Assembly (NCBI GenBank): GCA_043778225.1 | Contig: JAYWGM010000048.1 | Coordinates: 25,238-89,237, forward strand | Direction: 5' to 3' | Length of the DNA: 64,000 nt | Origin: Deinococcales bacterium | GTDB lineage: Bacteria; Deinococcota; Deinococci; Deinococcales; JAAFIG01 | Part shown: positions 15,533 to 64,000 of the stretch, piece after piece | How positions within the stretch are numbered: position 1 is the stretch's first letter | How the letters are laid out: every line of letters starts with the position of its first letter | Notes under the pieces: generated by a model | The model's input: the letters and a program-made list of their open reading frames with translations, nothing else | Told to the model about the DNA's origin: nothing | Databases searched by the model: none | Translations under genes and position numbers: made by a program

Positions 15533-15969
15533 TACGGTAATCGTGCCAAAACGAACCGAAAGGAATTCACCTATGCAGCATACCGCAACTAAATTACTCG
15601 AGCTAACCCAAGCCAATCTCAACTAGGACATCCGAAGACAACGTTTCATCATTGCTTTCGTCCTCGCTTTAATTGCAGTACGAACCGTCAATCTGACCCA
15701 AATAGCTGTTCACATGAACGCAAGTCAGTCAAAGCTAATGTACCGTACAATCCAACGTTTTTTCTTGATCCCAACACGCACTTGACGGGCGGGATCGCTT
15801 TCAGAGTTTTCGTCCTGATAGTCACGCTTTCCTCAAATTTCTACTATCCCTACTACCAGATGAACCATTGACCTTAATCATGAACCGAACCAACTGGGAT
15901 TACGGCAAGATTCACATTAACTACTTGGTGATTGGTGTTCTTTACCAAAGCACAGTCATACCCTTTTGA
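15533..15969 (+). pseudogene. Decayed IS4-family (IS10/ISAba1-like) transposase 5' fragment
   Basis: ATG 15573, stop 15624; LIAVRTVNLTQIA..YRTIQRFF; frameshifted LIMNRTNWDYGKIHINYLVIGV..IPF (first catalytic D appears as N); truncated. Confidence 0.8.
15763..15798 (-). mobile_element. Micro-element copy (36 bp) inserted in the IS remnant
   Basis: Reverse complement GCGATCCCGCCCGTCAAGTGCGTGTTGGGATCAAGA; removal restores IQRFFSEF. Confidence 0.85.
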
Positions 15970-16446
15970 GCAAAGTTTATTTCGTATTGGACTGGATTTT
16001 TTACGTGGACTAATTTTTGATGGTTCTCTCGAGAAACGTGAAAATCGACTTGTCTTTGGAGTTTTGACGTGTACTTAGATTTACCATAGAAGGTTTCTCG
16101 AGTCTGACTGCTTATCGGGCTAACTTTGTTCAATCGGTGCATTTGCTTAAAGTAGCTTTACTCGGCGAGAAAGCGGGGACTTTGCCTAAAATTCAAGAAC
16201 GAATTCTCGAGTATGGGCAACAGCATTAAATACCTTCGGACTCAAATTAAAAAACCGTACAGAATTCTAGGTAGCTCATCACAATTTGACTTGGGCGCTG
16301 ATTAAATCCGCCAAGGCTCGAGCCGCATTGCTTTGCTTTGCCAACCAAGTTTCGACCAATTTCATTGTCTTGGATGGTGCAGTACAGAGTAGTATTACAA
16401 ATTCTCCCACTCTGTACAGAACCGTCATTAGCTCGAGATAAAAAGT

Positions 16447-19116
16447 TTACGGCAAGCGAATGGTCAATGCCCCAAGGATAACGTCAATCGGAGTAAGTTG
16501 GTCGCCTGTTGTTACTCCGTTACCAAGTTGCCCTTCGGTGTCATCGCCCCAACTGAACATTTTACCGTCTGACTTGAGTGCCAACGAATGCAAACCGCCA
16601 GCCGCAATCGCCACAATGTTGGTCGCACCACCAACGACGGTTGGAGTGGATTTATCGGCAAGTGGTGTTCCATCGCCAAGTTGTCCTTTTTCGTCCGAAC
16701 CCCAAGTCAGCACCGTTCCGTCCTTTTTTAATGCCACAGAATGATTGAGACCAGCCGCAATTGCCACGATGTTGTTGGAGTTACTGCCGCCAACTGCAAC
16801 TGGTGTCGTTCTATCTGTACTTGAGCCGTCGCCGAGTTCGCCACTAAAATTTGCGCCCCAAGCCAGCAGTGTGCCGTCTGATTTGAGGGCTAAAGAAAAA
16901 CTCCGACCCGCCGCAATTGCCACAATGTTGGTTGCATCTTGTACTGGTACAGGTGTCGTCGAAGACACTCCGCCAGCAGCATTATCGCCAAGTTGCCCGA
17001 AATCATCCGAACCCCAAGCCAGTATTGTTCCGTCTGATTTGAGTGCCAAAGAATGTTTTTCACCGGCTGCAATGGCAACAGTGTTGCTTGTGCCTGGCAC
17101 TAAGGTTGGTGTCGTGTTGTTAGGTGCAGTGTTGCCTAGTTGTTTGTCACGATTATCACCCCAACTGTACACATTGCCGTCGTCTCTTAATGCCAGTGAA
17201 TGGTTTGTGCCTGTGGCTATCGAAGTAAATTTGAAGGTCACGCCGACATCTACAGGAACGGATGTCGAATTAATAGAGCCTTGTAGGTTATTGCCAAGTT
17301 GTCCGTGGGTGTTATCGCCCCAACTGATGAGCGAACCATCGGTTTTGAGTGCCAGCGAATAAAATCCACCTGCGGAAACCGCCACGATGTTGGTGTTCTT
17401 TGCGCCACTGACCGCTACAGGTGTGGGTGAGTTATTCAGGTTACTTGTGCCGAGTTGACCAAAAGCCCCTTGTCCCCAAGCCAAGACGGTGTTGTCTGAT
17501 TTTAAGGCTAAAGTATGGTGTTGACCACCACTGATACTGGCTTGGTTTGGATTGATGCTGATAAAAATGGTTTTTTTCTGGGTTGGGTCTTGGACACTAC
17601 TTGCAGTAATCCGTACAATCCGTCCAACAGAAGTGTTTGGGGCGGAATAGGTGTTGGTGGTGCCAAATCCGGTATTTTGCAGCGAACCATTGCCACTCGA
17701 GAGTGTCCCAATACCATCGTTTTCGATCTTCCAAGTCGAGTTTGGATTGAATTGATTCACATTACCACTCGAGGTCACTGTGGCGCTCAGTTGGGTTGAC
17801 TCACCAGTTTTTAAGGCTGACTTTGCGGCGGTCAAGGTCACACCCGTGATACTGGCTGGTTTGATGGTCATGGTGATTGTGCCAAATTTGCTCGAATCCC
17901 CAGTGCTGGTAGCTTTAATCTCCACTGTACGTTCTCTGGCATCGGCACCTGGAACACTAAAAGTGATGGATGAACCTGTGGGGTTAATCAGAATTGCATT
18001 GTCAGTGGTGACAATGCTCCAAGTCACGGCATTACTAAACGTACCATTGCCTGTAACCGTGGCGGTCAGCGTGGTGTTTGTGGCAGGCAACACAGTTGTG
18101 GCAGGCGCACTGATGGTCACGGCAGTCACACCTGGAGTGGCGGCTGTGATGCTCAGGCTGACTTCGCCAAATTTGCTGGCATCCTGATTGCTGGTGGCAC
18201 GAATCACAGTTGTGCCATTTGGGGCAGTAGCAGGAATCGAAAAAACCACGGGTGAACCTGTCGTGGCAGACAATGAACCTACTCCACTGGTAATGCTCCA
18301 AGTGACTGCATTACTAAACGTACCTGTTCCTACGACCACAGCACTTAAATTGGCTTGTGTTCCGCCACTGACAATCGGCATGTCTGAACTGGCAGTCACC
18401 GAAGTAATACTCGAGTTTGTGCCTTGAAACGTAGTCAGGATTGTATTTTGTAATGTCAGAGTATAGGCGTTCCCAGCCAAATCGGTTAGGCTCGAGCTAA
18501 CCAGCAGTGCATAGGAAATAGCGGATTGTGCCGAGGTTGTCAGGGTCACGGTTTTGTTATCTGCCGCAACACTGGCAGCACTTACAGTTAATCCCTGTGA
18601 TGGAAAACTAAAATTCGTAGCTAAATTCCCCCCTGCAATGGCTTCACTAAAGACCACGGTCACACTGGTGTTGCTTGCGGCGGTTGTACTTACCACCGTT
18701 GGAGGCGTGGTATCCCCAGTAACAGGTGCGGCGGTCACGGTCAATTTGAAGGGAATGGTTTTGGTCAGAGAACCCGAAATGCCTTTGATAGTCAGGGTTG
18801 TCTCGCCCAGAGCAGCATTAGCGGCAACGTTCACAGTCAAGGTGCTGGTGCTTGAGGTCGAAACTGGATTAAAGCTGCTGGTCACACCTGTAGGCGCTCC
18901 TTCGAGACTCAGCGCTACCGAATTTGCAAAACCCCCCGTTTTGGTTAAGCTAACCGCAAGTGTCCCTGATTGGGTTCTTTTAACCGTGAGGCTCGAGTTA
19001 TCCAAACTTAAACTAAAATCTGGTACTGGAGCAGGGGCTGGCGGACAGGCAACCAAACCAACCATCAAGAAACCCGCCAAAAGTGTTTTGCCAATAAAAC
19101 CAATCTTGAACTGCAT
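16447..19116 (-). CDS. Surface lipoprotein with several Ig-like domains and a C-terminal RCC1/BLIP-II beta-propeller
   Basis: Lipobox GLVAC; DFSLSL, DTTPPTV, AVTWSI Ig-like repeats; seven AIAAGxxHSLALKSDGTxxxWGxxxxGQLG repeats; SD GGAGGT. Confidence 0.9.
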   Translation of the reverse strand: MQFKIGFIGKTLLAGFLMVGLVACPPAPAPVPDFSLSLDNSSLTVKRTQSGTLAVSLTKTGGFANSVALSLEGAPTGVTSSFNPVSTSSTSTLTVNVAANAALGETTLTIKGISGSLTKTIPFKLTVTAAPVTGDTTPPTVVSTTAASNTSVTVVFSEAIAGGNLATNFSFPSQGLTVSAASVAADNKTVTLTTSAQSAISYALLVSSSLTDLAGNAYTLTLQNTILTTFQGTNSSITSVTASSDMPIVSGGTQANLSAVVVGTGTFSNAVTWSITSGVGSLSATTGSPVVFSIPATAPNGTTVIRATSNQDASKFGEVSLSITAATPGVTAVTISAPATTVLPATNTTLTATVTGNGTFSNAVTWSIVTTDNAILINPTGSSITFSVPGADARERTVEIKATSTGDSSKFGTITMTIKPASITGVTLTAAKSALKTGESTQLSATVTSSGNVNQFNPNSTWKIENDGIGTLSSGNGSLQNTGFGTTNTYSAPNTSVGRIVRITASSVQDPTQKKTIFISINPNQASISGGQHHTLALKSDNTVLAWGQGAFGQLGTSNLNNSPTPVAVSGAKNTNIVAVSAGGFYSLALKTDGSLISWGDNTHGQLGNNLQGSINSTSVPVDVGVTFKFTSIATGTNHSLALRDDGNVYSWGDNRDKQLGNTAPNNTTPTLVPGTSNTVAIAAGEKHSLALKSDGTILAWGSDDFGQLGDNAAGGVSSTTPVPVQDATNIVAIAAGRSFSLALKSDGTLLAWGANFSGELGDGSSTDRTTPVAVGGSNSNNIVAIAAGLNHSVALKKDGTVLTWGSDEKGQLGDGTPLADKSTPTVVGGATNIVAIAAGGLHSLALKSDGKMFSWGDDTEGQLGNGVTTGDQLTPIDVILGALTIRLP

Positions 19117-19212
19117 ACCTACCTCCATAGAGAACTGCGAATAACCTTAACAAGCGGGGTGAGTGGCTTTGATGTTTTCAAAAGCAGCAATGAACGCAAA
19201 CCCGTTAGATAC

Positions 19213-27140: not shown

Positions 27141-27802
27141 TAACGACGTGAACTGGCTTGTTGTAAGCGGCTGCTCGGTAAAATTGCTGATGGATTAAGG
27201 ATTGTACCACCGCGACGGACTTCAAAATGCAAATGTGGACCACTGCTGTTGCCCGTGCTACCAACCCTCGAGATCATCTGCCCTTGGCGCACCCGTTGCC
27301 CTTTGGAGACCAAACGCCTCGAGTTATGGGCATAGTAATAATCGCGCCCATCTATACCGCGAATTGTAATCAGTTGACCATAGCCAAATACATTCCAACC
27401 CGAAAATGTAACCGTTCCAGAGAGCGCCGCGTAAACTGGTGTGCCGGTTGGGGCAGCCAAATCTAAACCAGCATGACCACTCTTTGGACCTCGGTAGGAA
27501 TAGCGTTGGGTGATTACACCCATCAAAGGCCAGAGCGGGCGCTCGTAGCTACTCGAGACTTGAGCCACTGGACTGCTGCTCGAGCCAGGAAGCTGTAGCA
27601 CTTGCCCAATGCGAATGCGGTCAGCAGAAAGCTGATTGGCAGCCCGCAACCCAGAAAGACTCACTCCATTGCGTCTGGCAATACTCGAGAGCGTATCGCC
27701 TGTGCGAACAGTCACGCTTTGAGCGCTGGCGACTGCGACTAGAGCGGCTGTGGCTAAACCCAGTACAATTTTGCCGAATCGGTTCTTGATAAAATCAATC
27801 AT
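27140..27802 (-). CDS. LysM + M23 peptidase
   Basis: Signal peptide; VRTGDTLSSIA LysM; HAGLD, YAH, GPHLHFEVR. Confidence 0.93.
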   Translation of the reverse strand: MIDFIKNRFGKIVLGLATAALVAVASAQSVTVRTGDTLSSIARRNGVSLSGLRAANQLSADRIRIGQVLQLPGSSSSPVAQVSSSYERPLWPLMGVITQRYSYRGPKSGHAGLDLAAPTGTPVYAALSGTVTFSGWNVFGYGQLITIRGIDGRDYYYAHNSRRLVSKGQRVRQGQMISRVGSTGNSSGPHLHFEVRRGGTILNPSAILPSSRLQQASSRR

Positions 27803-50929: not shown

Positions 50930-50967
50930 GCTCACTTCGGCGTGAGATACATCGCCCTTACTCCTGT

Positions 50968-51005: not shown

Positions 51006-51107
51006 TTAGTCGGAAATGTTTTAGCAAAGAACTCTAAAACATTTCAGGGAGGTACTTAGTGGCAGTCACATAGAACCTTGGTGTGGCATTCGCTTAGAAT
51101 ATAGCGC

Positions 51108-52253: not shown

Positions 52254-52254
52254 A

Positions 52255-52313
52255 GCAAAGAAAGCAGAAAAATTGCTTTTGATTTATTTCTCTTTTCTCT
52301 TTTCTCTTTCCTC
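52255..52313. repeat. Heptamer (TTTCTCT) array and hairpin between convergent genes
   Basis: tttctcttttctcttttctctttcctct; the complementary AAAGAGG-type array occurs at 63700-63845. Confidence 0.6.
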
Positions 52314-52948
52314 TAGCGCTTATAAGCCCCATCCAGCACCAAAGTTAGGGCTTTTTTGAGTTCATCCTTGACTGGGCGGTTTGGATGAAAAGCACTCCAG
52401 CGCAGGGCAGTCATCAAAAAAGTGTAAGCAATCGTGGCGGCAATTCGTTCAATGCTGACATCATCGCGGATTTTATGGGTCTCGCGCAGTAAAGGTTCAA
52501 TAATCTTCGCCAACGGCATGGCTTCATAGGCAGCTTTGGCACGAACTGGGTCGGGGTTAATCAATTCATAAGTCAGGGGTGGAATTAAATCGCGCTCTTC
52601 TTGGGTGACTCGAGCCAATTCAAGCCACAGTTCCTCGAGCATGGCGGATGCGTCTAAGCCCTCGTTGCGCCGTTCTTCAATCACATCATGCAGATTGGTG
52701 ACGATATACGCCCCGTAATCAAGCAGCACCGCTTCTTTGTACGGGTAGTAATTAAAGAATGTTCCCCTCGAGACATGGGCAGTGCGAGCAATGTCGGTGG
52801 CGGTGGTTTTGTCAAAACCGTTTTCCTTAAAGAGTTGAATTGCCACCTGATAAATGCGGTTGCGGCGGCGAATTTTTTGACGCTCACGCAAGGAGAGTTT
52901 TAAGTCGTCCTGCAAAAGCGGTTTTGGTGCGGGGCTAGAAAAGGTCAT
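52313..52948 (-). CDS. TetR-family regulator
   Basis: LRERQK..AIQLFKENGFDKTT..IARTAHVSRGTFFNYYPYKE. Confidence 0.93.
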   Translation of the reverse strand: MTFSSPAPKPLLQDDLKLSLRERQKIRRRNRIYQVAIQLFKENGFDKTTATDIARTAHVSRGTFFNYYPYKEAVLLDYGAYIVTNLHDVIEERRNEGLDASAMLEELWLELARVTQEERDLIPPLTYELINPDPVRAKAAYEAMPLAKIIEPLLRETHKIRDDVSIERIAATIAYTFLMTALRWSAFHPNRPVKDELKKALTLVLDGAYKR

Positions 52949-52996
52949 CACAGAGCGGGATGATAACACTTTTTTGTCTACAGTCCAAAAAAAGGC

Positions 52997-53124
52997 AGGG
53001 TTAAAAGGTCAAAGGGTTAAAAGCGACCATGCCCGACAGGTGCGTGTTTATGGTCAAGAAGGTTAAAAGGTTAAAAGGTTAAAAAGTTAAAAGGTCAAAA
53101 GGTCAAAAGGTCAAAAGGTCAAAG
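52997..53124 (+). repeat. Octamer tandem array (GGTTAAAA/GGTCAAAA) interrupted by a micro-element
   Basis: About 11 octamer units; insert at 53023-53059. Confidence 0.9.
53023..53059 (+). mobile_element. Micro-element copy (37 bp)
   Basis: GCGACCATGCCCGACAGGTGCGTGTTTATGGTCAAGA. Confidence 0.88.
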
Positions 53125-53209
53125 GGGCTAAGTGAGCAAAGTTGGAGCGTGATGTTGACCTGAATGCGCTGTCAGATAAAAATCAGGTTTTCGGATTAGA
53201 CTACATTTC

Positions 53210-56200
53210 ATGAAACCATTTTTGAGGTTATGGGGCGTTTTGCTGGTCTTGTTAGGGCTGAGTGCCGCCTTTGTCTGGGCGCAGCGCGATTCGCAGTTGT
53301 GGGTCTACTCGAGAGGGATTTTTTTGCCTACTGACGATTTGCGTTTTGAATTGTATAGCTATGGGGCTGACCCTTCAGAAATTACCGTCAATTACAATAA
53401 AGTCACCGACCCTTTAGCCTTATTGCGCTTAAAACCCAACGATGGTTACAGCGCCATTAAAATTCCCGAAAACATCAAAACCACCTTAGTCAAACGCAGC
53501 AACGTCAAAATGGATCGCAATTATGGGCAAGTTAATTTGGGCAAACTCGAGTCGGGGCTGTACTTGTTGGGCTTTGCTTCGGGCAATGCCAAAGGTATCG
53601 GTATTGCATTGGTCACCGATTTGGGGATTTTGGTCAAACGGGCGGATAAAAATGTCTCGGTGCTCAGTGTCAATCGGGTCAATGGTCAGCGTCGCAGCGC
53701 CACGGTGTATGGCATCGAAGGCAATAATGCCCAACAAATTCGCACCGATGTCAACGGGCTGGGTAAACTCTCGCCCTCGAGTGACAAAAATGGTTTGGTG
53801 GTGGCAAACAGTGGCAACAATTGGGCGGTCTCGAGGTCATGGTGGCAAAGTTACGGTCTTGAAAAATGGAAATTAACCGGACAGACCGACCGACCACTTT
53901 ATAAACCCGCTGATGCAGTTTCGTTTCGTGGCACACTGCGCGAAGGCAACACCTTAAAACCAATCAAGCTCGAGAAAATCAGCGTTGTGGCGTGTTACGA
54001 CAACACCGAACTGTGGCGTGGCAAGCAAGCGGTCAATGAATATGGCACATTCAGTGGTTCGTTTAGCTTATCCAGACGCGCCAAGACTTCGGAATACGAC
54101 CAGTACCGCATTTATGTTGCGCCAAGCGGCGAGGCAGCCTGCGGGGCTGGCTTAAATGTGGCATCCTTCAAAGTCGAGGATTACATCAAGCCAGACTTTA
54201 CAGTAGCCCTCGAGAACCCAGAAATTGGGCTGCAAGGCACAAGTGTAAAAATAGCTGCCAGTGCCGAATACCTATTTGGTGGCGGTGTTTCGGGCGGTAA
54301 GGTCAACATTCAGGTTTCTCGAGCCGAGCGCTACCGCCGCGACGACCCGCGCTACTCGGACTTTGGCTATTATTGGGGCGAATGGGATTATTGGCAACCG
54401 CGCCAAGCGATTATTTTAGAGAAAAACACCGTGCTGGGCGAAAGTGGCAAACTCGAGGTGACTGTGCCGCTCGAGCGTGACCCCGATAATGCAGTTGTGG
54501 CGTATAACATTCAGACCACCATCGAGGATGAAACCCGCCGCCCACAGACCACCAGCAGCACCGTGATTGCTTATCCAAGCACCGTGCGAGTGGCAGTGCG
54601 CTCGAGCCGTTATGTGGTCAAGGCTGGCGAAGAAATCGAAATGGATGTTCGCACCCGCGACCTGACTGGCGAAGCTGCCGATGCACCTGTCGAACTGACC
54701 TTGGTGCGCCGCGATTACTGGTACAACGCCAGCCGTTGGACTCCTCGAGAAGAAAAACTCGAGACCCGCACCGTCAGCACCAAAAATGGCAATGCCAAAG
54801 TCAAATTTAAGGTCGCTCAAGGCGGCGGCTACAGTGTGCTTGCCAAAGCCAAAGACCCACAAAACCGTGTTTCGTTGGGCGAGGCGTTTGTTTGGGTCAC
54901 AGAAGACAATCCAAGCTGGTATTGGTACTACGAAAACGCTGGAATGCAGATTAAAATGGATAAACGCGAATATGCAGTTGGCGACACCGCCGTGGCGTTT
55001 ATCAGTGGCATCAAACAAGGTGTGGATGTCTGGCTGACGCTCGAGGGCAGCGAAATTCTCAATCAGCGTGTTACTCGAGCCGCCGGTGGCAATGCCGCTT
55101 GGACATTTAAGGTCACAAAGGAAATGCAGCCCAACATTGTCTTAAAAGCCGCTTATATTGCGGCTGGCGCAAAAAGCCTAACCGAAACAACTTTAGCTGT
55201 TCCTAAAGTCCAAGAACGCCTGAGTATTTCAATTCTGCCCGCCAAGCAAAAATACCAAGCTGGCGAAGCTGGACAAGTCAAATTGCGGGTGCGTGACGCA
55301 AACGGCAAACCAATCAAAACCGAATTGGGCGTGACGGTGGTGGACAAAGGCATTTATTTACTTAAAGAAGACAGCACCCCTAACCCGTTTGATGTGCTGC
55401 ACGGCTACCGCAACAACTTGGTCGGGACAGTCTCGAGCGAAGACGAAACGCTTTATGTGGATGCACCAAGACCTGTGGCAACCGCTTTGGCATCCCCGTC
55501 AGTAGCGGCTCGCCCTCGAGCCGAAGCCCCATCTGCTAACAAAGCCGTGGCGGATTCTGCGGCTTCTGGGGCAGAAGTCAAAGTCCGTAAAGATTTTAGG
55601 GACACTGCTGATTGGCGTGCCAGTTTAATCACCAACGACGAAGGCGAAGTAACCATGACCGTGCCATTTCCCGAGAACCTGACCACTTGGCGGATTACAG
55701 TACGCGGTCAGACCCTCGAGGCAAAAGCTGGGGCTGCGAAAACCGAAGTCATGGTCACCCAAGATATTGTGGCGAGGATTGCCCAACCGACTTTTTTGGT
55801 GCGCGGTGATTCGTTCCAGTTGCGCGGCATTGTCAATAATAACCGCGAAACGCCAATCACTGGGCAGTTCAGCATTGGCTTAAATGGTCTGACTGCCAGC
55901 ACCCCACTCCAAACCAGCCTGAGCATCAAACCCGGACAGCGCGGCAGTTTTGACACCCGTGTGACCGCCACCGAATTTGGGATTGCCAAAGTAACCGCCA
56001 AATTTGCCGATAATCTGGGCGGCGACGCGCTCGAGTTACCGATTAACATTAAACCGCGTGGCTTTACCGATGGGACTGGTTGGGCAGCCGATGCCAAGCG
56101 TGGCGCAAAGAAATTCAGCATCCCAACGGACACCAACCTCGAGAGTGCCAGACTCAAAATCGCCCTGACCCCAAGTTTACTGAGTGCCGTTCGCCCTGCG

Positions 56201-57646
56201 CTCGAGCAACTGATTGGCTACCCTTATGGCTGTACCGAACAAACCCTATCGCGCTTTTTGCCGACTCTGCTGGCACAGCAAGCCTTTCCCCGCGACGACC
56301 TGCCCGAACTCTTGGATGCGGGTTTAAGCCGCCTCGAGACGCTGCGCCACAACGATGGCGGCTGGGGCTTTTGGACTGAAGACAGCAGCACGCTGGAGAT
56401 GACCGGACAAGTGGTGCTGGCATTGGCTCGAGCCAAAACAGTCGGGCTAAAATTTGAGTCGTATTTGTTGGATGGCGCAGTGCAGTGGTTGCGCCAACGC
56501 ATCAACGATGGCAATGGTCAACGTGGCGCACGAGCCGTGGCATACCGCGCTCTTGCCGAAGCAGGCAGCCCAGCTTTGGAGAGCATGGAAGACTTTGCCG
56601 CCCTGCGCGACCTCGAGCCGTATCATCTGGGGCAACTGGCACTGGCATACCACAAACTTGGCAAGCTCGAGGAAGCCCGCACAATGCTGACCCGCCTCAA
56701 AGCCAAGCGCATCGAGACCGACAGCAATGTGCGCTGGGAACGTCCAAATCGTCAGTACCGTTGGTACTACTACTGGGATGATAACCCCGTCTTGGTCACG
56801 GCAGTTGCACTCGAAGCCTTAGCCAAACTCGAGCCACGCAGCAATCTGATTCCAAAAACAATCAATTATTTACTGCAACAACGCCGTGGTTACTGGTGGG
56901 TCTCGACCCAAGACACCGCCGCCACCGTGATTGCCGCGCTTGCACTACCCAAACCTGCCGACAGCAACCAGACCGTTAAAGTGCTGCTGAACGGCAAAGA
57001 AATCGCCACCAAGACCATAGACGAAAAAGGCACAACCCTCGACCTTGACCCAAAGCTCAAAATTGGCGAAAACAGCCTCGAGATTAAAGGCGACCTCAAT
57101 TATGCCGCCAGCCTCGAGTACGTCCGTGAGCCAGAACGCTTGGTGGCTGATTCGGATGGAATTACGGTTAATCCAACCTATTACAAACTCGAGAAAAAAT
57201 GGAACGAAAGCGCTCGTAATTACGATTACACCCCAGTGCCACTGATTAAGGATGGTATTGCCCAACCACTCGAGGTTGGCGAAATGATTGCGGTCAACAT
57301 CCGCATTAAACCCGAAAGTGGCAGTATGCGCCATCTGCAAGTGATTCAGCCCGTACCAGCCGGCTTTAGTGTGGTTAAAGAAACTGGTTGGAATTTCCAG
57401 CCCGGCAGAGCCATTCGCTACTTTGAAAATTATTGGTACTGGAATTATTGGTACTCTGGGCGTGAAATTTACCAAGATCGCGTAGAACTCTATGCCGACA
57501 CCTTTGGCGGCGAGCAAGAATTTACAGTCTATATGCGGGCGCAAACCCCCGGCACATTTACCGCACTGCCAACCATTGCCGAACTGATGTACGACCCCAG
57601 CATTCGCGGTCGCTCGAGTGCCGCAACTTTAACAATTAAAGAATAA
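53210..57646 (+). CDS. Bacterial alpha-2-macroglobulin (YfaS/YfhM-like)
   Basis: Signal peptide; TDRPLYKP, VRKDF, PENLTTWR, thioester PYGCTEQ, DGGWGFW, STQDT, AELMYDP. Confidence 0.93.
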   Translation: MKPFLRLWGVLLVLLGLSAAFVWAQRDSQLWVYSRGIFLPTDDLRFELYSYGADPSEITVNYNKVTDPLALLRLKPNDGYSAIKIPENIKTTLVKRSNVKMDRNYGQVNLGKLESGLYLLGFASGNAKGIGIALVTDLGILVKRADKNVSVLSVNRVNGQRRSATVYGIEGNNAQQIRTDVNGLGKLSPSSDKNGLVVANSGNNWAVSRSWWQSYGLEKWKLTGQTDRPLYKPADAVSFRGTLREGNTLKPIKLEKISVVACYDNTELWRGKQAVNEYGTFSGSFSLSRRAKTSEYDQYRIYVAPSGEAACGAGLNVASFKVEDYIKPDFTVALENPEIGLQGTSVKIAASAEYLFGGGVSGGKVNIQVSRAERYRRDDPRYSDFGYYWGEWDYWQPRQAIILEKNTVLGESGKLEVTVPLERDPDNAVVAYNIQTTIEDETRRPQTTSSTVIAYPSTVRVAVRSSRYVVKAGEEIEMDVRTRDLTGEAADAPVELTLVRRDYWYNASRWTPREEKLETRTVSTKNGNAKVKFKVAQGGGYSVLAKAKDPQNRVSLGEAFVWVTEDNPSWYWYYENAGMQIKMDKREYAVGDTAVAFISGIKQGVDVWLTLEGSEILNQRVTRAAGGNAAWTFKVTKEMQPNIVLKAAYIAAGAKSLTETTLAVPKVQERLSISILPAKQKYQAGEAGQVKLRVRDANGKPIKTELGVTVVDKGIYLLKEDSTPNPFDVLHGYRNNLVGTVSSEDETLYVDAPRPVATALASPSVAARPRAEAPSANKAVADSAASGAEVKVRKDFRDTADWRASLITNDEGEVTMTVPFPENLTTWRITVRGQTLEAKAGAAKTEVMVTQDIVARIAQPTFLVRGDSFQLRGIVNNNRETPITGQFSIGLNGLTASTPLQTSLSIKPGQRGSFDTRVTATEFGIAKVTAKFADNLGGDALELPINIKPRGFTDGTGWAADAKRGAKKFSIPTDTNLESARLKIALTPSLLSAVRPALEQLIGYPYGCTEQTLSRFLPTLLAQQAFPRDDLPELLDAGLSRLETLRHNDGGWGFWTEDSSTLEMTGQVVLALARAKTVGLKFESYLLDGAVQWLRQRINDGNGQRGARAVAYRALAEAGSPALESMEDFAALRDLEPYHLGQLALAYHKLGKLEEARTMLTRLKAKRIETDSNVRWERPNRQYRWYYYWDDNPVLVTAVALEALAKLEPRSNLIPKTINYLLQQRRGYWWVSTQDTAATVIAALALPKPADSNQTVKVLLNGKEIATKTIDEKGTTLDLDPKLKIGENSLEIKGDLNYAASLEYVREPERLVADSDGITVNPTYYKLEKKWNESARNYDYTPVPLIKDGIAQPLEVGEMIAVNIRIKPESGSMRHLQVIQPVPAGFSVVKETGWNFQPGRAIRYFENYWYWNYWYSGREIYQDRVELYADTFGGEQEFTVYMRAQTPGTFTALPTIAELMYDPSIRGRSSAATLTIKE

Positions 57647-57647
57647 A

Positions 57648-57935
57648 CCCTCACCCGCCGCGCCTCTTGACCCCTACAGCAGCACCTTCGGGCTTGGGGG
57701 CGCGACACCCTGTTGGACTGTTTATTGCTCTTTTCCTGCATTTCCACGAGCTTCGCTCGATACTATTGTGTCGCCAAAAAGCGCGGGAGAGGGTTGTTCG
57801 GTTTGTTTTGTTGTTCTAGCGTAAGGATGGAAAAAGCCAAACCCTACCAACCAAAAACCCCCTCAACGAGCGACCCAGCCCGTCAGGTGCATCTTTAGGG
57901 TCAAGAGAGGGGGTCGCCGAAGGCGGGGGGAGTGC
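57648..57935. repeat. GC-rich REP-like palindromic cluster containing two micro-element copies (57665-57703 minus, 57870-57906 plus)
   Basis: ccctcacccgcc.. / ccccctc-aacga-[insert]-gagggggtcgccgaaggcgggggg; inserts match GCCCG..GGTGC..GGTCAAGA. Confidence 0.72.
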
Positions 57936-57993
57936 GTGAGAGAATGTGTCTTCATGTACCGCATCGCACTCCTTGACCTGCCGAACTTGACTT

Positions 57994-58926
57994 CTATAAA
58001 TGGGTCTTAAACCACTCGAGGGTCATACGCCAAGCATCGTCAGCAGCATCTTTTTTATAGTTTGCGCCAGTATCGTTGTTAAAGGCATGATTTGCGCCTT
58101 CATAGATTTTAATTTGGTACTTGGCATTGGCAGCTTTGAGGGCGGTCTCGAGGGCGGGAATTCCAGCATTGATACGGCTGTCGTTACCGCCGTAAATACC
58201 CAGCACCGCCGCTTTGATGTTGGGGACTTTTGTTAAGTCTGGAGCAGGTCCGTAAAATGGCACGGCTGCCAAGAGGTCTTTACTTTCGGTCGCAAGTCGC
58301 CACGTTAAGCCGCCGCCAAAGCAAAAGCCAGTCACGCCAAGGCGCTGAGATTGCACACCAATATAATTTTTAAGCACATGCAGTGCCTCGAGCAAATTCG
58401 TCACGTGTTCGTCGCCGTTGGTCTGAGCCAATAAACTCGAGATTTGGGCTGTATCGGTAAATTTCTTTGTGCCGCCGCTTTTACTGACCAAATCCACGGC
58501 TAGTGCCACATAACCAGCTTTGGCTAAGCGCCGTGCGATGTCTTCGATGTGTGGTTGCAGCCCACGGTTTTCGTGAATCACCAGCACACCCGGCGCACTG
58601 GCAGTGCCAACGGGTTTAGCCAAGTAGCCAAAATGTTCAAACCCCCTTGCCATAAAAGAAATGCTTTTGGCATCGATGCTTGGGTCTTTGGGGTCAACTT
58701 GTTGCGCTCGTAACACGGGTTCGACTTCGGGGATGCTGGCAAAAACTTGGTCCCATTCAGCTTGGCTGGCTGCGGCTATTCCAGCCGAACTTAAAAGCGC
58801 GGTCGCGCCAACGATACCGCCACCCAGCAGTGCCATACGGCGCAGCAGTTCACGGCGACTGATTTCTCCGTGTTGAAAGTCTTCAACAAATTCGTCTACC
58901 ACATACCGATACAAATCTTGCTGCAT
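57994..58926 (-). CDS. Dienelactone hydrolase family protein (YghX-like, twin-arginine-like N-terminus)
   Basis: SRRELL, IHENRGL, GFCFGG, ANHAFNND; SD GAGGAG. Confidence 0.92.
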   Translation of the reverse strand: MQQDLYRYVVDEFVEDFQHGEISRRELLRRMALLGGGIVGATALLSSAGIAAASQAEWDQVFASIPEVEPVLRAQQVDPKDPSIDAKSISFMARGFEHFGYLAKPVGTASAPGVLVIHENRGLQPHIEDIARRLAKAGYVALAVDLVSKSGGTKKFTDTAQISSLLAQTNGDEHVTNLLEALHVLKNYIGVQSQRLGVTGFCFGGGLTWRLATESKDLLAAVPFYGPAPDLTKVPNIKAAVLGIYGGNDSRINAGIPALETALKAANAKYQIKIYEGANHAFNNDTGANYKKDAADDAWRMTLEWFKTHL

Positions 58927-58936
58927 AAAAACTCCT

Positions 58937-59893
58937 CTAGACCACACGACGGTTGAGTTCTCCCGCCGCCAACGAAACAAAAAGTAGAATTCCTGCCAAC
59001 GCGGCTGCCAAATGGGTCACTTCACCAGGGCGGGTTGTCCAACCAATGCTGCGTCCAAGGTTTTTATAAACGGCATTGAGTTGCCCCGCACTGCGAGCTT
59101 CAAAGTATTGTCCGCCAGTCGTGGCGGCGATTTGCTTTAAGGTTTCGGGGTCAAAACCCACCCGAAAACCGCCATTCTCGAGGTTGATTGAACCAGTTTC
59201 TGTGCCAAGCCCAACGGTATAAATTTTAACTTGTTGGTCTCGAGCCATGCTTGCCATTTCGATCGGGTCTGGGTCACGGTTGTTGCGCCCATCGGTCAGC
59301 AACACCACAGCCACAGGTGGTGGATTTTTCTCGAGCTTGGTCTGACCATCACTGTTGCGTCCGGGCAGCGCCGAAACCGATTCACGGATACCCGCCCCGA
59401 TGGCTGTACCACGTCCCATCGATAACTCATCAATCGCTTTTAAGACTTCATCATGATCGGCGGTCGGATTGACATTCACAGCCGCATAACCAGCAAAACT
59501 GACCAGACCAATTTTTGTGCCTTTTGGCAGTTGTTTGATAAAAAGTCGAGCCGCTTCTTGGGCGGCGATAAACCGAGTCGGCACAATGTCTTTGGCATCC
59601 ATCGAAAGCGAAACATCGAGCGTTATCATGATCGTGGTTTTATTGTCTGGTACTGGCACAGGCGCATTGGGGCGAGCCAGTGCCACAACCGACATTCCGA
59701 TTGCCAGTAAAAACACCAGGGTCGGTAAATCGCGTCCTCTCGAGAAACGCTTGGTGCTGAGTCGCTCGAGAAATTCAGCATCGGGGTGCAGCACCACACC
59801 CTCGGCGGGACGTGCCTGACTTTTAAGGTACAACCATGCCAAAATTGGAATCACCAAGAGTGCCAGCAATAACCATGTCCAAGTAAAACTCAT
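58937..59893 (-). CDS. vWA-domain membrane protein (BatA-like)
   Basis: ALARP, MIDAS DVSLSM, GTAIG, LLTDG. Confidence 0.9.
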   Translation of the reverse strand: MSFTWTWLLLALLVIPILAWLYLKSQARPAEGVVLHPDAEFLERLSTKRFSRGRDLPTLVFLLAIGMSVVALARPNAPVPVPDNKTTIMITLDVSLSMDAKDIVPTRFIAAQEAARLFIKQLPKGTKIGLVSFAGYAAVNVNPTADHDEVLKAIDELSMGRGTAIGAGIRESVSALPGRNSDGQTKLEKNPPPVAVVLLTDGRNNRDPDPIEMASMARDQQVKIYTVGLGTETGSINLENGGFRVGFDPETLKQIAATTGGQYFEARSAGQLNAVYKNLGRSIGWTTRPGEVTHLAAALAGILLFVSLAAGELNRRVV

Positions 59894-60903
59894 GTCAACC
59901 TCCGATGCCAAACCAGATTAAATCCAGCCGCAAACAGCAACCAGAGCAGAGCCAAACCCGACAAAACACCGCTTAACTCGAGTTTGGTGGCTTCAAAACG
60001 AATTGCTGTGCCGAGTTCCTTAAAAATTTTGGTCAGTTCGCCTTTGTCAGCCGTCACAGCTTGCCCTTCGCCAAGTTGGGCAATTTGTTTTAGGGTTTCG
60101 GCATTAAAGGGAATAAAGTAATCTTGCCCATCTATTTTGGCAACTGCGCCACCTTGTTTACCGACCGCTACTGTGTAGACCTTGACTTTGTGGGTTTTGG
60201 CAAATTGGGTGGCTAAACGCACATCTGCCCCAGCGTTGCCAACCCCGTCGGAGAGCAGCAAAATTGCGCCGGGCGGCAAAGCGTTAAAATCTATCGGCTT
60301 GGCAGTGGGGTTTTGTTGCCCCGGGCGCGGCGCTCCGGGCAATCCTTGCGGGATAATCGCTGCCGCTCGTCCGGGTAAGGCGCGAACACCCGCCACAATT
60401 GGGTCGGCAAGGCTGGTGGTATTGGAGGTTTTGACTTTCTCGAGCCGCTCGAGCAATTGCACGCGGTCGGTCGTGACCGGCACAACGGCAGCAGCACTCT
60501 CGGAAAATGTCACCAAGCCAATGCGCGTATCTTGCGGCGCAAGTTTAAGAAAATCCTTAATCACACCTTTGGCAACCTCGAGCCGCGTTGGTTCAACATC
60601 TGGCGCAAGCATCGAACGGCTGGTGTCGAGGGCAATCATCACAGCAGCTTTATTTTGTGGCAAAGAAAGGGTGGCGGTTGGGTGTGAAGCGGTCAATAAA
60701 AGCGCTGCCAATGCCAACAATTGCAAAACCCGTGGGATATTGGAGTGTGCTTTTGGGGCGGTTTTAATCGTGCTGCTCAGTAAACTGGCATCAGCATAGA
60801 GCAGCGAGGTATTTTTACGCCGTGCCTCAAGCCGTGTGAGACCAAACCAAGCAAGCGGCACAAGCAGCAACAGCAACAACAATTCGGGGGAAGCAAAAGT
60901 CAT
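59890..60903 (-). CDS. vWA-domain membrane protein (BatA-like paralogue)
   Basis: MTFASP, MIDAS DTSRSM, LLSDG. Confidence 0.9.
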   Translation of the reverse strand: MTFASPELLLLLLLVPLAWFGLTRLEARRKNTSLLYADASLLSSTIKTAPKAHSNIPRVLQLLALAALLLTASHPTATLSLPQNKAAVMIALDTSRSMLAPDVEPTRLEVAKGVIKDFLKLAPQDTRIGLVTFSESAAAVVPVTTDRVQLLERLEKVKTSNTTSLADPIVAGVRALPGRAAAIIPQGLPGAPRPGQQNPTAKPIDFNALPPGAILLLSDGVGNAGADVRLATQFAKTHKVKVYTVAVGKQGGAVAKIDGQDYFIPFNAETLKQIAQLGEGQAVTADKGELTKIFKELGTAIRFEATKLELSGVLSGLALLWLLFAAGFNLVWHRRLT

Positions 60904-61883
60904 CTGCGTCCTTTTCTGCGAATGGCAAACTTGAGCAATGGATTTAAGATGTCATGGGCGGTAATCAACTCTAAATTGTCCACTGTTGCCCTCCTAAATG
61001 CTTTAGAAATGCGGTTTTCACGCTCGAGAACCATAGCCTGATGAGCCGCTTGAACACTTTTATCGGAAGTATCCACCCAAGTTTCACGGCTCGAAACGGG
61101 GTCACGAAAACGCGCCCCGCCAACTTTGGGCAACTCGCGCTCTACGGGGTCTATGGTTCGCACCGCGATTAAATCGTGTTTGATGCCCAAGCGCGAAAGG
61201 TTTTTTTCCCACAAGGCGGGCGGCTCGAGAAAATCAGAAATCACAAAGACCAAACCACGCCGCCGCAGGGTCTTGGCGACTTGCTCGAGGGCAGTGCCTA
61301 AATTGGTCTGCGAAGCTATATTTTGATTCTCGAGTTTTGAAAGTTGGTCTACGATTCTCAAGGCTTGTTGCCGACCGCTGCCGGCTGGAATCAGTTTGAC
61401 CCCGTTAGCACTGACCGCCAATGCCCCAACTTTATCGCCGTGCCGAGTACAGATTCGGGCTGCCATGGCGGCAAACTCGAGCGCCAACTGGAATTTGGTG
61501 ACGCGCCGTGTGCCAAAGTGCATACTTGGGTTGGCATCGACAATAATCCAAGCCGTAATCTCGCGCTCTTCACGGTACTGGCGCACGTGCAACTCACCAG
61601 AACGGGCGGTCACATTCCAGTCAATCCGCCGTACTTCGTCGCCCGGCTGATATGGGCGCACTTCGGCTAAATCCAAACTTGGTCCATAAAAAACGCCAGT
61701 GTAATCGCCAAATAAAAAGCCATCCAAACGCTTTAAGACCGTAAACTCGAGTTGGCGCAGCAATTGCTCGGGGAGGGCATGATGGGCGGCTTTACTCGAG
61801 ACCACGGGTGCAACCGACAAAGCCGGCGGCGCTTTTGGGGTGCGTCGCCAAAATGGGGTACGGCTAGTGCTGGCAATGGTCAC
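60900..61883 (-). CDS. DUF58-domain protein
   Basis: VRPYQPGDEVRRIDWNVTAR, ISDF. Confidence 0.93.
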   Translation of the reverse strand: MTIASTSRTPFWRRTPKAPPALSVAPVVSSKAAHHALPEQLLRQLEFTVLKRLDGFLFGDYTGVFYGPSLDLAEVRPYQPGDEVRRIDWNVTARSGELHVRQYREEREITAWIIVDANPSMHFGTRRVTKFQLALEFAAMAARICTRHGDKVGALAVSANGVKLIPAGSGRQQALRIVDQLSKLENQNIASQTNLGTALEQVAKTLRRRGLVFVISDFLEPPALWEKNLSRLGIKHDLIAVRTIDPVERELPKVGGARFRDPVSSRETWVDTSDKSVQAAHQAMVLERENRISKAFRRATVDNLELITAHDILNPLLKFAIRRKGRR

Positions 61884-61903
61884 AAATTATTCCCTTGATA
61901 GAG

Positions 61904-61927
61904 AGGCGAGGCAAGCCCCGCCCCTAC
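61904..61927 (-). repeat. Single GTAG-type REP
   Basis: Reverse complement GTAGGGGCGGGGCTTGCCTCGCCT. Confidence 0.75.
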
Positions 61928-61929
61928 GG

Positions 61930-62991
61930 TTACAGATTGACTTCGATGTTGTTTAAGCTGCTGCTGTTTGGCACAGCATCGACAGATTTGTACGGGTCGC
62001 CGAGGTGAACTCGAGGCAGCGAAATATTTTGCAAAATCTGAGAGATGATGCCTTCCATGCTGATGCCATCTGCCAAAGCATCGTAACTTGGGATAATCCT
62101 GTGACGCAGCACATCAAATGCCAAATCGCGGACATCTTCGGGCAAGGCGTATTCGCGTCCGCGCATGATTGCCAAGGCTTTTGCACCAAGCACCAAATTG
62201 ACACTGGCTCGAGGGCTTGCACCAATCGAAATAAATTTTTTCAGTTCGGGCAGCTTGGCTTCGGATGGTTCGCGGGTGGCTCGAGCCAAACGCACCGCGT
62301 ATTCGGTCACGCTTGGGTGAACATACACTTGGTCCGCCATGCGCTGTAAATTGACCAATTCCTCGAGGGTCAGCTTAATCTCGAGTTTGTCAAATTTGGT
62401 GCTAACCCTGTCCACGACCGTCATTTCTTCATGGAAACCGGGGTAACTAATCACAACCTTAAACATAAACCTATCCACTTGGGCTTCAGGCAGAAAATAC
62501 GTGCCTTCGGATTCGATTGGGTTTTGGGTAGCAAGTACCAAAAACGGGTTGGGAAGCGGAAAAGTCTGTTGCCCGATGGTCACTTGGCGTTCCTGCATGG
62601 CTTCTAAAAGAGCGCTTTGGATTTTGGCGGGCGCACGGTTAATTTCATCGGCGAGGATTAAATTAGCCACAATCGGACCTAACTCGGTTTCAAACTTGGC
62701 TTCTTTTTGGTTGTAAATCCGTGTACCAATTAAATCGGCTGGCACAAGGTCTGGGGTAAATTGAATGCGCTTAAAACTTGCACCAATTGCGTCGGCGGTG
62801 CTTTTAATGGCGAGGGTTTTAGCCAGACCCGGTACGCCCTCAATTAAAATATGCCCTCGAGCAATTAAAGCCACCAACAAGCGCTCGAGCATCACATCCT
62901 GCCCGACAATTACGCGCTTGACTTCAAATAACAGGGTGCGAACTTTGGCGCTGGCATCCATCACTTCTTTGGGGTTGAGTGGTGTATTCAT
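61930..62991 (-). CDS. moxR: MoxR-family AAA+ ATPase
   Basis: GVPGLAKT, RIQFTPDLVPAD, ADEINRA, ATQNPIE, GASPRA. Confidence 0.95.
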   Translation of the reverse strand: MNTPLNPKEVMDASAKVRTLLFEVKRVIVGQDVMLERLLVALIARGHILIEGVPGLAKTLAIKSTADAIGASFKRIQFTPDLVPADLIGTRIYNQKEAKFETELGPIVANLILADEINRAPAKIQSALLEAMQERQVTIGQQTFPLPNPFLVLATQNPIESEGTYFLPEAQVDRFMFKVVISYPGFHEEMTVVDRVSTKFDKLEIKLTLEELVNLQRMADQVYVHPSVTEYAVRLARATREPSEAKLPELKKFISIGASPRASVNLVLGAKALAIMRGREYALPEDVRDLAFDVLRHRIIPSYDALADGISMEGIISQILQNISLPRVHLGDPYKSVDAVPNSSSLNNIEVNL

Positions 62992-63042
62992 TATTCTCCA
63001 GTCTGCGGTACAGCCATGAAGGGCGTGTGAAGGGAAAAAGAC

Positions 63043-63079
63043 AGGGTTAAAAGGGGAAAAGGTCAAAAGGGGAAAAGTT
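63043..63079 (+). repeat. Octamer array
   Basis: gggttaaaaggggaaaaggtcaaaaggggaaaag. Confidence 0.7.
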
Positions 63080-63085
63080 TTGTGG

Positions 63086-63562
63086 CTAACTTCTTGGGTT
63101 TGGTGGGGTGCTTGGACTCGAGGGGGTGCTTGGCGTGCTTGGCGTACTTGGCGTACTTGGCGTGCTTGGATTTAAGGGAATCAGTTCTTGTCCTTGACCG
63201 GGTTGTCCGGGCTGATTGCCTTGCCCTTGACCGGGCTGCTGTCCGGGTTGTTGTCCGGGGCGCGGAAAAGTAAAGAGTTGTCCATCTTGATAAATTTGCA
63301 CTGGGCAATCTGCGGGGGCTTGTCCTTGTCCGGGCTGAGGTTGTTGCCCCTGTCCTTGACCGGGCTGTTGACCATTTGGACCAAGCGGGATTAACTCTCG
63401 GGAGTCGTTGGGGGCTGGAGCTTGTGGGGTAGGGGCTTGTACCAACTGGATTTTAATTGGTACTCGAGCCTCGAGTTGCGTATTGGGTGTGCTGACCCGA
63501 CCCAGAAAAAAGCCAGCGCTTAAAAGCGCCACGGCAGCCGCGAGCAAACCAAGTGATTTCAT
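63086..63562 (-). CDS. Membrane-anchored low-complexity protein (QPGQG and PST repeats), first gene of the MoxR operon
   Basis: N-terminal hydrophobic helix; duplicated ELIPL; 9-bp tandem repeats; ATG 7 nt after TACAAT. Confidence 0.75.
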   Translation of the reverse strand: MKSLGLLAAAVALLSAGFFLGRVSTPNTQLEARVPIKIQLVQAPTPQAPAPNDSRELIPLGPNGQQPGQGQGQQPQPGQGQAPADCPVQIYQDGQLFTFPRPGQQPGQQPGQGQGNQPGQPGQGQELIPLNPSTPSTPSTPSTPSTPSSPSTPPNPRS

Positions 63563-63680
63563 GCCACCTATTGTAGCGCCTTTGGTGTGAAGGAATTGAA
63601 AAGAAAATGACAGTTTTATTCACACAAACTTCAAAAACACGATGCTCTGGTCATGATTCAAGACTCTGCAAAACACACCC

Positions 63681-63905
63681 TAGTGGGTCATTCGACACGG
63701 AGAAAAGAGGAAAGAGGAAGCGACCATGCCCGTGAGCGACCCAGCCCGTGAGCGACCATGCCCGTGAGGTGCGTCTTTAGGGTCAAGACAGGTGCGTCTT
63801 TAGGGTCAAGACAGATGCGTGTATATGGTCAAGAAAGAGGAAAAATGTGCTGTACGCTATTCTCGAGATAACTCAAAGATACTATGCAAATCGAATGACC
63901 CACTA
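63681..63905. mobile_element. MITE-like element, family B, with perfect 15-bp TIR, containing a heptamer array and a triple-nested micro-element
   Basis: TAGTGGGTCATTCGA (63681-95) / TCGAATGACCCACTA (63891-905). Confidence 0.75.
63720..63834 (+). mobile_element. Three micro-element copies nested inside one another
   Basis: Left halves 63720-35 and 63736-51, full copy 63752-88, right halves 63789-811 and 63812-34. Confidence 0.88.
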
Positions 63906-64000
63906 AGTATCTCCCGCCTGTCTTGACCATAAACACGCACCTGACGGGCATGGTCGCGCATTTTAGATTTTTCACAAAACGGCAAATCTGTTCTTGCTCG
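63904..64000. mobile_element. Second copy of MITE family A (truncated by the window) with a micro-element at 63921-63957
   Basis: Matches 50844-50901 apart from a 37-38 bp insert (reverse complement GCGACCATGCCCGTCAGGTGCGTGTTTATGGTCAAGA). Confidence 0.8.

Follow-up and report, generated by a model that had tools for sequence, protein, structure and literature searches.

A very small, structured insertion element in one family of Deinococcales

Scattered over a 64,000-nucleotide stretch of Deinococcales DNA are about ten copies of a repeat of 37-40 nucleotides (nt). This stretch, called the window throughout, is positions 25238-89237 of contig C48 in genome G000, and window coordinates are contig coordinates minus 25237; genomes, contigs and loci carry our own handles (G, C and L). 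We conclude, with little doubt, that the repeat is a lineage-specific, non-coding and non-autonomous insertion element with fixed ends and a covarying outer stem, and that it has been inserted repeatedly. It is confined to one Deinococcales family and is among the smallest insertion elements seen in bacteria. The fullest explanation we can offer, which joins this identity to movement as a folded single strand, has in our estimate a little less than an even chance of being right.

Copies, sequence and fold

The source genome G000 (4.03 Mb in 107 contigs, 48.7% G+C, completeness 89%) contains 83 full copies by a strict regular expression. An nhmmer profile made from these 83 and then run genome-wide returned 219 matches, among them 118 of full length, 16 halves from the 5' side and 34 from the 3' side; the roughly 50 halves are leftovers of nested insertions. 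An initial examination of the window from its letters, referred to below as the sequence-only reading, had listed about ten copies on both strands, and nhmmer and direct reading place the motif at all ten. The copies and their hosts (MITE, miniature inverted-repeat transposable element) are given here with the evidence for each in brackets:

15762-15798, minus strand: full copy with outer stem GATCCC/GGGATC, within a ~450-bp dispersed repeat (nhmmer model positions 1-38, E 2e-6)
50849-51040, minus strand: host MITE with terminal inverted repeats TAAGTAYCTCCC..., two internal sites filled (BLAST and MAFFT, 16 paralogous copies)
50894-50932, minus strand: copy of a diverged subfamily, 5' GCGCGAGTA..., 3' ...TATGAGCAAGA, at MITE site 2 (nhmmer 8-37; 39-nt insert relative to empty MITE copies)
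50967-51005, minus strand: full copy with variant inner stem GCCCC / GGTGG, at MITE site 1 (nhmmer 1-38)
53023-53060, plus strand: full copy with stem GACCAT/ATGGTC, splitting a GGTYAAAR octamer array in an intergenic spacer (direct reading; nhmmer E 1.2e-11)
57665-57703, minus strand: diverged copy (GCGCCCCCAAGCCCGAAGGTGC...GGGGTCAAGA) within another small repeat (nhmmer 5-37, E 0.099; direct reading)
57870-57906, plus strand: full copy in the loop of a small palindrome, CCCCCTCAAC^GAGGGGG (nhmmer E 2e-12; predicted hairpin-loop site)
63720-63835, plus strand: three copies nested at the inner loop, GCCCGTGA^GGTGC (direct reading; nhmmer)
63720-63735 and 63736-63751, plus strand: 5' halves of the nested trio (model 1-17 twice)
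63752-63788, plus strand: whole inner copy of the trio (nhmmer full copy)
63789-63812 and 63816-63835, plus strand: 3' halves of the trio (model 14-38 and 19-38)
63921-63957, minus strand: full copy filling site 3 in the window's other copy of the 50849-51040 MITE, a MITE copy truncated by the contig end (nhmmer E 2.9e-12)
47853-47873: weak match, probably chance (nhmmer E 1.3)

The unit reads GC-GAYYNN-GCCCGNNAGGTGC-NNNTTT-NNRRTC-AAGA, then A, CA or GA. Its ends are constant (5' GCGA; 3' CAAGA plus A, CA or GA), the letter after CAAGA being A in 47, C in 24, G in 12 and T in 5 of 88 distinct contexts. Between them a conserved inner hairpin, GCCC-GNNA-GG[T]GC with the T bulged, sits inside an outer stem of 6 bp in which pairing is kept while the letters change; the whole is strongly asymmetric, with single-stranded tails of GC at the 5' end and AAGA(S)A at the 3' end. 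As the sequence-only reading had stated, there is neither an open reading frame (ORF) nor a terminal inverted repeat, GCGA and CAAGA not being inverted repeats, which sets the element apart from MITEs. With up to two mismatches, the core GCCCGTSAGGTGCGT occurs seven times in the window against 0.26 expected, a number reached in none of 100 shuffles.

The proposal that the outer stem covaries holds as well. In an alignment of 98 copies (78 distinct), picked by a pattern that leaves the stem letters free, all four variable pairs show double-sided change (CG/UA; CG/UA/GC; CG/AU; UA/CG/UG/AU/GC), with 82 double-changed cells where shuffles give 31.9 +/- 3.4 (none of 500 as high) and controls with slid partners at most 11; the copies are mutually related, and the shuffle figures are not probabilities. 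Note that the inner hairpin and the end letters were set by the selection pattern and are therefore uninformative in this test. The stem pairs cited in the sequence-only reading are present, and relatives add GATCCT/AGGATC, GATTCT/AGAATC, GAACCC/GGGTTC and GATGCC/GGCATC. Single-sequence DNA folding recovers the identical two-level structure.

The exact pattern was sought in 201 genomes of the order, namely G000, 18 others of its family and 182 from four sister families. It occurs in 17 of the 18 (five genera, 1-188 copies) and 77 times in G000, giving a load of 0 to 188 copies across the 19 family genomes, and in none of the 182; a reversed-pattern control gave 0 everywhere. A covariance model (R1), the kind of scan that the sequence-only reading had recommended, likewise matches 17 of the 18 other family genomes (G030 has no match, G025 has 12), against single weak matches in 4 of 82 genomes elsewhere. 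In a collection with one genome per species the scan gave at least 122 loci, and 78 of the 80 among the matches listed come from Deinococcales or from Deinococcota metagenome-assembled genomes (15 assemblies). The out-of-phylum matches, L013 (Actinomycetes) and L042 (Acidobacteriota), are without stem complementarity and resemble each other, and we treated them as chance or coding. Viral contigs contain no match to the element pattern.

Other catalogues agree with the suggestion that the element may be undescribed. At gathering thresholds Rfam 15 matched only a tRNA in the window, and at E<=1 it gave no match for the arrays L175 and L176 or for the insertion sequence (IS) locus L173, to which we return below; six core strings of the element do not occur in the literature text searched; and the element is not an end of the one IS200/IS605 copy examined. 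As to location, 30 of 130 copies lie wholly inside open frames of at least 150 aa, such frames covering 90% of the genome.

Insertion sites and junctions

That the element inserts can be read from filled and empty versions of the same sites, a comparison proposed in the sequence-only reading. A flank-joining search of G000 found empty paralogues for 51 clusters of copies, 48 of them with a clean gap, and two further pairs are between genomes. The 121 clusters with usable flanks represent 87 distinct junction contexts, so that the idea of a very small structured mobile element present at many unrelated sites is borne out. Within the window, the ~450-bp repeat that hosts the 15762 copy has copies without the element in G075:C733 and G055:C274, and the site at 57870 has an empty paralogue at C53:2334-2372. 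Among 16 aligned copies of the MITE at 50849-51040, site 1 is filled in two and site 2 in six, the others being empty; the copy at 50967-51005 is a 39-nt insert relative to C99 and 13 further empty MITE copies, and site 3, filled at 63921, is empty in the 50849-51040 copy and in other copies. The spacer that holds the 53023 copy is single-copy, with flanking genes that are syntenic in four congeners, and the element is absent from all four: G010 and G075 have neither array nor element, and G055 and G090 have a short, different array.

The targets are of a few recurrent kinds. Grouped by host, 117 clusters comprise 26 in hairpins of repetitive extragenic palindromes (REPs) tagged with GTAG, 17 in octamer arrays and 16 within MITEs, and the other 58 are mostly inside further element copies or small palindromes; the claim that every copy interrupts some other repeat was thus nearly right. 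Hosts also include a copy of an IS3-type transposase, a RAYT-like gene and the left end of an IS110 element. Counting hairpins of at least six uninterrupted pairs, 16 of 40 distinct empty sites lie in a loop or within 2 nt of one, against 136 of 2000 random positions (6.8%), a comparison that is biased in that empty sites can be found only for repeated hosts. Within the element itself there are two self-insertion sites, the inner loop GNNA^GGTGC and CTTTA^GGGTC. Head-to-tail runs are exact and reach four units, and double units occur at single sites. Neighbouring full copies within 200 nt have the same orientation in 16 cases and the opposite in three, the three being either in GTAG hairpin doublets or unrelated neighbouring copies.

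What do the junctions look like? Among 39 pairs whose flanks match well, 37 have 1-5 letters in common between the target and the joined ends of the element (overlaps of 0 in 2 pairs, 1 in 15, 2 in 8, 3 in 10, 4 in 3 and 5 in 1), whereas simulated insertion at random sites gives no overlap in 55% and four or more letters in 1.6%, so that 45% share letters by chance; many of the 39 are paralogues of one event and the independent number is about 25, which tells against the scheme of movement considered below. G, AG and AAG account for most of these overlaps. A fixed target duplication of 2 nt is ruled out, the overlap being below 2 in 17 of the 39 pairs. The statement that there is no clear target duplication stands for a duplication of fixed length and has to be amended for the short duplication or identity of 1-5 letters. 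Immediately before GCGA the 88 contexts have A (57), G (21), T (8) or C (2), and the complementary strand therefore mostly reads C|T at both borders of the element.

Two of the hosts deserve a description of their own. The ~140-bp MITE with TAAGTAYCTCCC terminal inverted repeats is a main source of contig breaks: it is found in the window at 50849-51040 and 63906-64000 and at contig ends of C5, C12, C18, C21, C31, C74 and others, and three of its internal sites hold the 38-nt element in some copies and not in others. The octamer arrays GGTYAAAR (window 52991-53172; C99:1-61; C7:10209-10268; many others) have a unit that resembles the element's 3' end, GGTCAAGAA. Breaks at repeats are also seen in sequencing data. 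Among three runs of one study, two DNA runs from a biofilm metagenome contain the window and the third contains next to none of it; contigs assembled from the two runs and aligned to window positions 50000-64000 end at repeats, and the single 39-nt skip in them (50966-51006) stands at 6-16x single-copy depth and comes from other, empty MITE copies.

Possible routes of movement

Since it has no ORF, the element must be moved in trans, as had been proposed from the start. The route towards which we lean, tentatively, is transfer of the element as a single, folded strand of DNA. The conserved bulged inner hairpin would then be the handle for a trans-acting, hairpin-recognising strand-transfer enzyme, and the best available model for such an enzyme would be of the HUH/Y1 type, like RAYT or the TnpA of the IS200 family, in view of what has been published on the E. 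coli REP transposase. According to excerpts of PMC3333891, TnpA-REP requires a hairpin with a mismatch and cleaves single-stranded DNA at C|T dinucleotides that flank this hairpin on either side; the authors suggest that it makes circles of single-stranded DNA and that amplification is of the rolling-circle type. In the scheme suggested here, the outer stem would set the 5' GC|GA beside the 3' AAGA end and so enable both to be cut and joined; the strand would be joined into exposed single-stranded DNA, typically on the 3' side of a hairpin loop before a G; joining would leave 1-5 letters (mostly G, AG or AAG) common to the target and the joined ends; the C|T borders on the complementary strand would correspond to the dinucleotide cut by the E. 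coli REP transposase; and runs of units might come from rolling-circle-like copying of the excised strand. We regard such an HUH/Y1-like route as possible, at somewhat less than even chances.

A number of findings weigh against it. Searches of G000 and the family genomes tied no enzyme to the element, and the evidence on RAYT in particular is neutral to negative. RAYT-like genes are present in 17 of 19 family genomes, which fits the part of the sequence-only reading that looked for a co-distributed HUH or RAYT transposase, but they are not specific to the element, being found also in 18 of 82 sister-family genomes without it. G025 has five and three RAYT-like matches (two queries) yet only 12 matches to the element model; G075, a genome 84% complete, has at least 40 element copies and no RAYT-like match. 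Among 28 RAYT-like loci the element lies 25-39 nt upstream in three, inside the gene in two and ~500 nt downstream in one, and the remaining 22 have none within 1.5 kb. All six element copies inspected at such loci are embedded in a GTAG hairpin. The adjacency looks secondary: GTAG hairpins are favoured targets, and the element adjoins RAYT-like genes because the genes' own GTAG hairpins are hit. Nor is a nearby REP required in cis, 91 of 117 clusters having no GTAG hairpin within 1 kb, and the GTAG tag that TnpA-REP requires (excerpts of PMC3333891) is missing from the element. The single intact IS605-type element of G000 (C28:82846-84487, L123; tnpA of 141 aa and tnpB of 394 aa) has an end hairpin unrelated to it.

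The element's own features add to this side of the balance. Across the 88 contexts there is no conserved multi-base target at the 5' flank, unlike in IS200/IS605, and copy orientation is unbiased relative to local GC skew (30:33, 27:25, 21:16). The 3' tail varies (A, CA, GA, rarely T, TT, G or C), identical cores bearing different tails, a variation for which the scheme does not account. In energy terms the fold is weak (-3.3 to -5 kcal/mol, z -0.5 to -1.3), and the case for structure therefore rests on the covariation; mismatches of G.T and A.C in the outer stem, at 4 and 2, do not discriminate the folding strand.

The RAYT-like gene of G000 is a curious locus in its own right. It lies at C32:27219-27881 (L174), and its protein reaches 36 bits with Pfam Y1_Tnp (cut-off 23) and 58.9 with NCBIfam REP_Tyr_transpos, under the cut-off of 80. 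An inverted pair of GTAG REP hairpins (C32:27439-27463 and 27581-27605) stands in its frame and leaves the frame unbroken, and the 38-nt element sits within a separate GTAG hairpin 25 nt upstream of the start, an arrangement found in G005 and G085 too. The hairpins of this family read GTAGGG, stem, and loop CTTGT, CCCYGT or GCTTGCC; their stems covary, they often form inverted doublets, and they occur in the window at 12530-12554 (plus strand) and 12578-12602 (minus strand) and at ~85 more sites genome-wide. They are likely the cognate family of the RAYT-like gene.

Some further families were looked for. A GIY-YIG nuclease (PF01541) has no match in G000, a weak negative at 89% completeness, and a search for Y2 / IS91 transposases gave no match in G000, nor in control genomes. 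An all-versus-all comparison of the 1398 ORFs within 1.5 kb of the G000 copies found no recurring neighbour gene that is a candidate enzyme, the recurring families being ABC transporter parts and one IS3-type pair.

Imagine now that no dedicated enzyme is involved at all. In a copy-choice process, run by host enzymes or enzyme-free, a 3' end stalled in a hairpin would anneal through 1-5 letters to a tandem or circular element, copy one or more units and switch back, and the element would be a replication parasite without a transposase of its own. The lack of a recurring neighbour gene would be expected under this scenario, as would junction overlaps that vary between 1 and 5 letters and match the joined ends, inserts of exactly two units at single sites beside head-to-tail runs of up to four, hairpins and slippery arrays as targets, and the absence of strand bias. 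However, every unit begins and ends at the same place (GCGA ... CAAGA), where a circle entered by microhomology switching could be opened at any point. The conservation of loop and end letters over five genera, together with the stem covariation, points instead to a specific recognition factor, and replication passes through hairpins in all bacteria, yet the element is limited to one family. We therefore consider copy-choice rather unlikely.

A different view would take the element for a structured motif useful to the host (a protein-binding site, a terminator or stabiliser, a recombination site) that is kept by selection and spread more by recombination among host repeats than by transposition. 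Sequence and structure are indeed conserved across five genera, the element is strongly intergenic, and REPs of other bacteria have such roles in the parts of the literature seen. Yet self-nesting in the loop ruins the fold of the outer copy, and insertions fall within a RAYT-like gene, the IS110 left end and an IS3-type transposase copy. Copy number runs from 0 to 188 among close relatives, the orthologous site is empty in four of four congeners, and the contexts are 87 in number and unrelated. On balance we find this view improbable.

Movement through RNA fares no better and is, in our judgement, quite improbable. Here the element would fold within host transcripts, be reverse-transcribed and be integrated in the manner of a SINE or by target-primed reverse transcription. 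Heterogeneous 3' tails and microhomology at the 3' junction would suit such a route, and the fold is equally good as RNA, with the same pairs. Against this, 5' ends are precise and there is no series of 5'-truncated solo copies, copies stand on both strands, and the sole reverse transcriptase found in G000, at its completeness of 89%, is of the UG13b defence type (PADLOC 465 bits), with no retron or group II type found there. It lies beside a HEC-01B gene (234 bits), the two occupying G000:C65:9370-10713 and 10835-11440 (L195:1075-2418 and 2540-3145). The sequence-only reading had invoked a single-stranded DNA or RNA intermediate; the RNA half of that proposal is weakened, and a lagging-strand signature for the DNA half finds no support in copy orientation, which is unbiased relative to local GC skew.

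IS110 elements at the repeat, and known systems compared

Copies of the element are in turn targets. An IS110-family element of 1161 bp (G000:C26:30448-31608, L173/L177) occupies the loop of a triply nested copy; it matches the NCBIfam model 'IS110 family RNA-guided transposase' at 208 bits (cut-off 140) and is flanked by CT on both sides in IS orientation. Relatives in G075, G045, G050, G065, G085, G010 and G080 (L178-L187), which bring the total to eight genomes of three genera, adjoin element halves whose split falls at an identical point (model positions 1-17 and 16-38). The left ends of these IS110 elements fold into a long stem, with compensatory change in 10 of 23 predicted pairs, and inside the predicted stem is an internal loop that has a small hairpin at its centre. 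On its 5' side this loop reads GCACC(T/C) and on its 3' side CC(C)GNNAG, a layout that we take to be that of the target-binding loop of a bridge RNA. In all eight testable copies, from eight genomes, the 3'-side guide equals the variable loop letters of the element copy that is occupied, in five variants (TAAG, TTAG, ATAG, GAAG three times and TCAG twice). This match suggests natural retargeting of IS110 among variants of one repeat.

The traffic also seems to run the other way. At one position of the non-coding left end, ~126-137 nt from the IS start, six IS110 copies (L179, L180, L181, L185, L192 and L193) contain one or two 38-nt elements, and the element thus also invades the predicted RNA gene of the IS that targets it.

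Could this recombinase move the element itself, with the shared border AG (CT opposite) as its core? IS110 copies do sit exactly at the loop AG with CT on both sides, at the very position of nested element insertions, but we consider the idea very improbable, as IS110 is found in eight of 19 family genomes (E<=1e-20), with stops in several copies and one copy in G000, the element's ends are unlike the IS ends read by a donor loop, a donor loop ...GGTCG-CT-TCTTGA... is not seen in the aligned IS left ends, junction overlaps are not a fixed dinucleotide, and a double-stranded circle of 38 bp would be an implausible donor.

More far-reaching, and unlikely while still deserving thought, is that the element represents a new minimal kind of transposon. 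It would be a strand of ~38 nt defined by its fold, in which the stem juxtaposes the ends and the bulged hairpin recruits a protein that is neither REP- nor IS200-type, or host replication and repair enzymes alone; it would be copied into the single-stranded loops of other hairpins and would in turn be the dedicated landing pad, each copy separately addressed, of a family of RNA-guided IS110 elements.

To our knowledge, since the cyanobacterial small dispersed repeats (SDRs) no mover has been known for mobile DNA too short to encode or flank anything. The present family is unusually clean material for this problem, with its fixed ends, a fold backed by compensatory changes, dozens of filled and empty pairs and a junction rule, and the range of copy number over the 19 family genomes permits a profile-based search for the enzyme. 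The element also reshapes other elements: REPs and MITEs contain it, as do a RAYT-like gene and IS110 elements at their non-coding end. Finally, about a hundred near-identical landing pads and an IS110 lineage whose guide appears tuned copy by copy may offer a natural example of bridge-RNA retargeting.

How does the element compare with what is known? Elhai and colleagues reportedly described, in 2008, SDR1-8 of Nostoc punctiforme and its relatives, repeats of 21-27 nt in heterocystous cyanobacteria that are said to have neither ORF nor terminal inverted repeats and to be found inserted in short tandem repeats, in MITEs and in further copies of SDRs. On these features, both kinds of repeat are very small, lineage-restricted, without ORF or inverted terminal repeats and without a known mover, and both are found in short tandem arrays, in MITEs and in one another. 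They differ in that ours is 37-40 nt long (SDRs reportedly 21-27) and lives in Deinococcota rather than cyanobacteria, the comparison being one of descriptions rather than of sequences. The Deinococcales element folds at two levels, its outer stem covarying, and for it the junction rule (1-5 shared letters) and the preference for hairpin loops are quantified. The element is thus at most an analogue of the SDRs: the behavioural likeness drawn in the sequence-only reading (nesting in itself, in tandem arrays and in MITEs) fits the SDRs as reported, and length and host phylum do not. The SDR work (Elhai et al. 2008, Genome Res 18:1484) is cited in PMC3116915 and PMC2884548, as excerpts of both show.

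REPs and REPINs, as presented in excerpts of PMC3333891, PMC3733652 and PMC3116915, are imperfect palindromes of 20-40 nt that are intergenic and of high copy number, like the element; their stems, too, vary between copies yet stay complementary, and in both kinds a hairpin mismatch or bulge is important. The element's borders fit C|T on one strand, and GTAG REPs and RAYT-like genes reside in the same genomes. One end of a REP bears an unpaired, conserved GTAG (or CGTC) tag (excerpts of PMC3333891 and PMC3733652), however, and the element has neither, CGTC occurring only by chance in copies with the loop GTCA. Unlike REPINs it does not form inverted doublets (16 same and 3 opposite orientations within 200 nt), unlike a REPtron it does not itself flank the RAYT-like gene, and it enters REP loops as a separate unit.

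With IS200/IS605 and their ORF-less derivatives, the PATEs, the element shares ends defined by a hairpin with an extrahelical base, the lack of inverted terminal repeats and the lack of a long target duplication. Single-strand logic of the IS200/IS605 kind would account for the loop targets. The element is nonetheless a single hairpin module, with no distinct left and right ends; it lacks a conserved multi-base target, shows no replication-strand bias by the GC-skew proxy, and is unrelated to the resident IS605-type hairpins. It is not a PATE in the strict sense either: it has no end hairpin in common with a resident IS, and its left flank is conserved at one base only. The IS200/IS605 single-strand mechanism is summarised in excerpts of PMC6006769. 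MITEs differ from the element in their terminal inverted repeats and in a duplication of fixed length, where the element has junction overlaps that vary from 0 to 5.

Like REPs that are targets of IS110-family elements, the element serves an IS110 subfamily as landing pad, with insertion at a CT core within the hairpin; this likeness concerns the user of the element and not its identity. Tobes and Pareja are said to have treated REP-targeting ISs in 2006. Taken together, the architecture of the element is closest to that of REPs, while its behaviour, judged by analogy with the reported SDR features, is closest to that of the cyanobacterial SDRs, and the element belongs with the already known very small structured dispersed insertion repeats.

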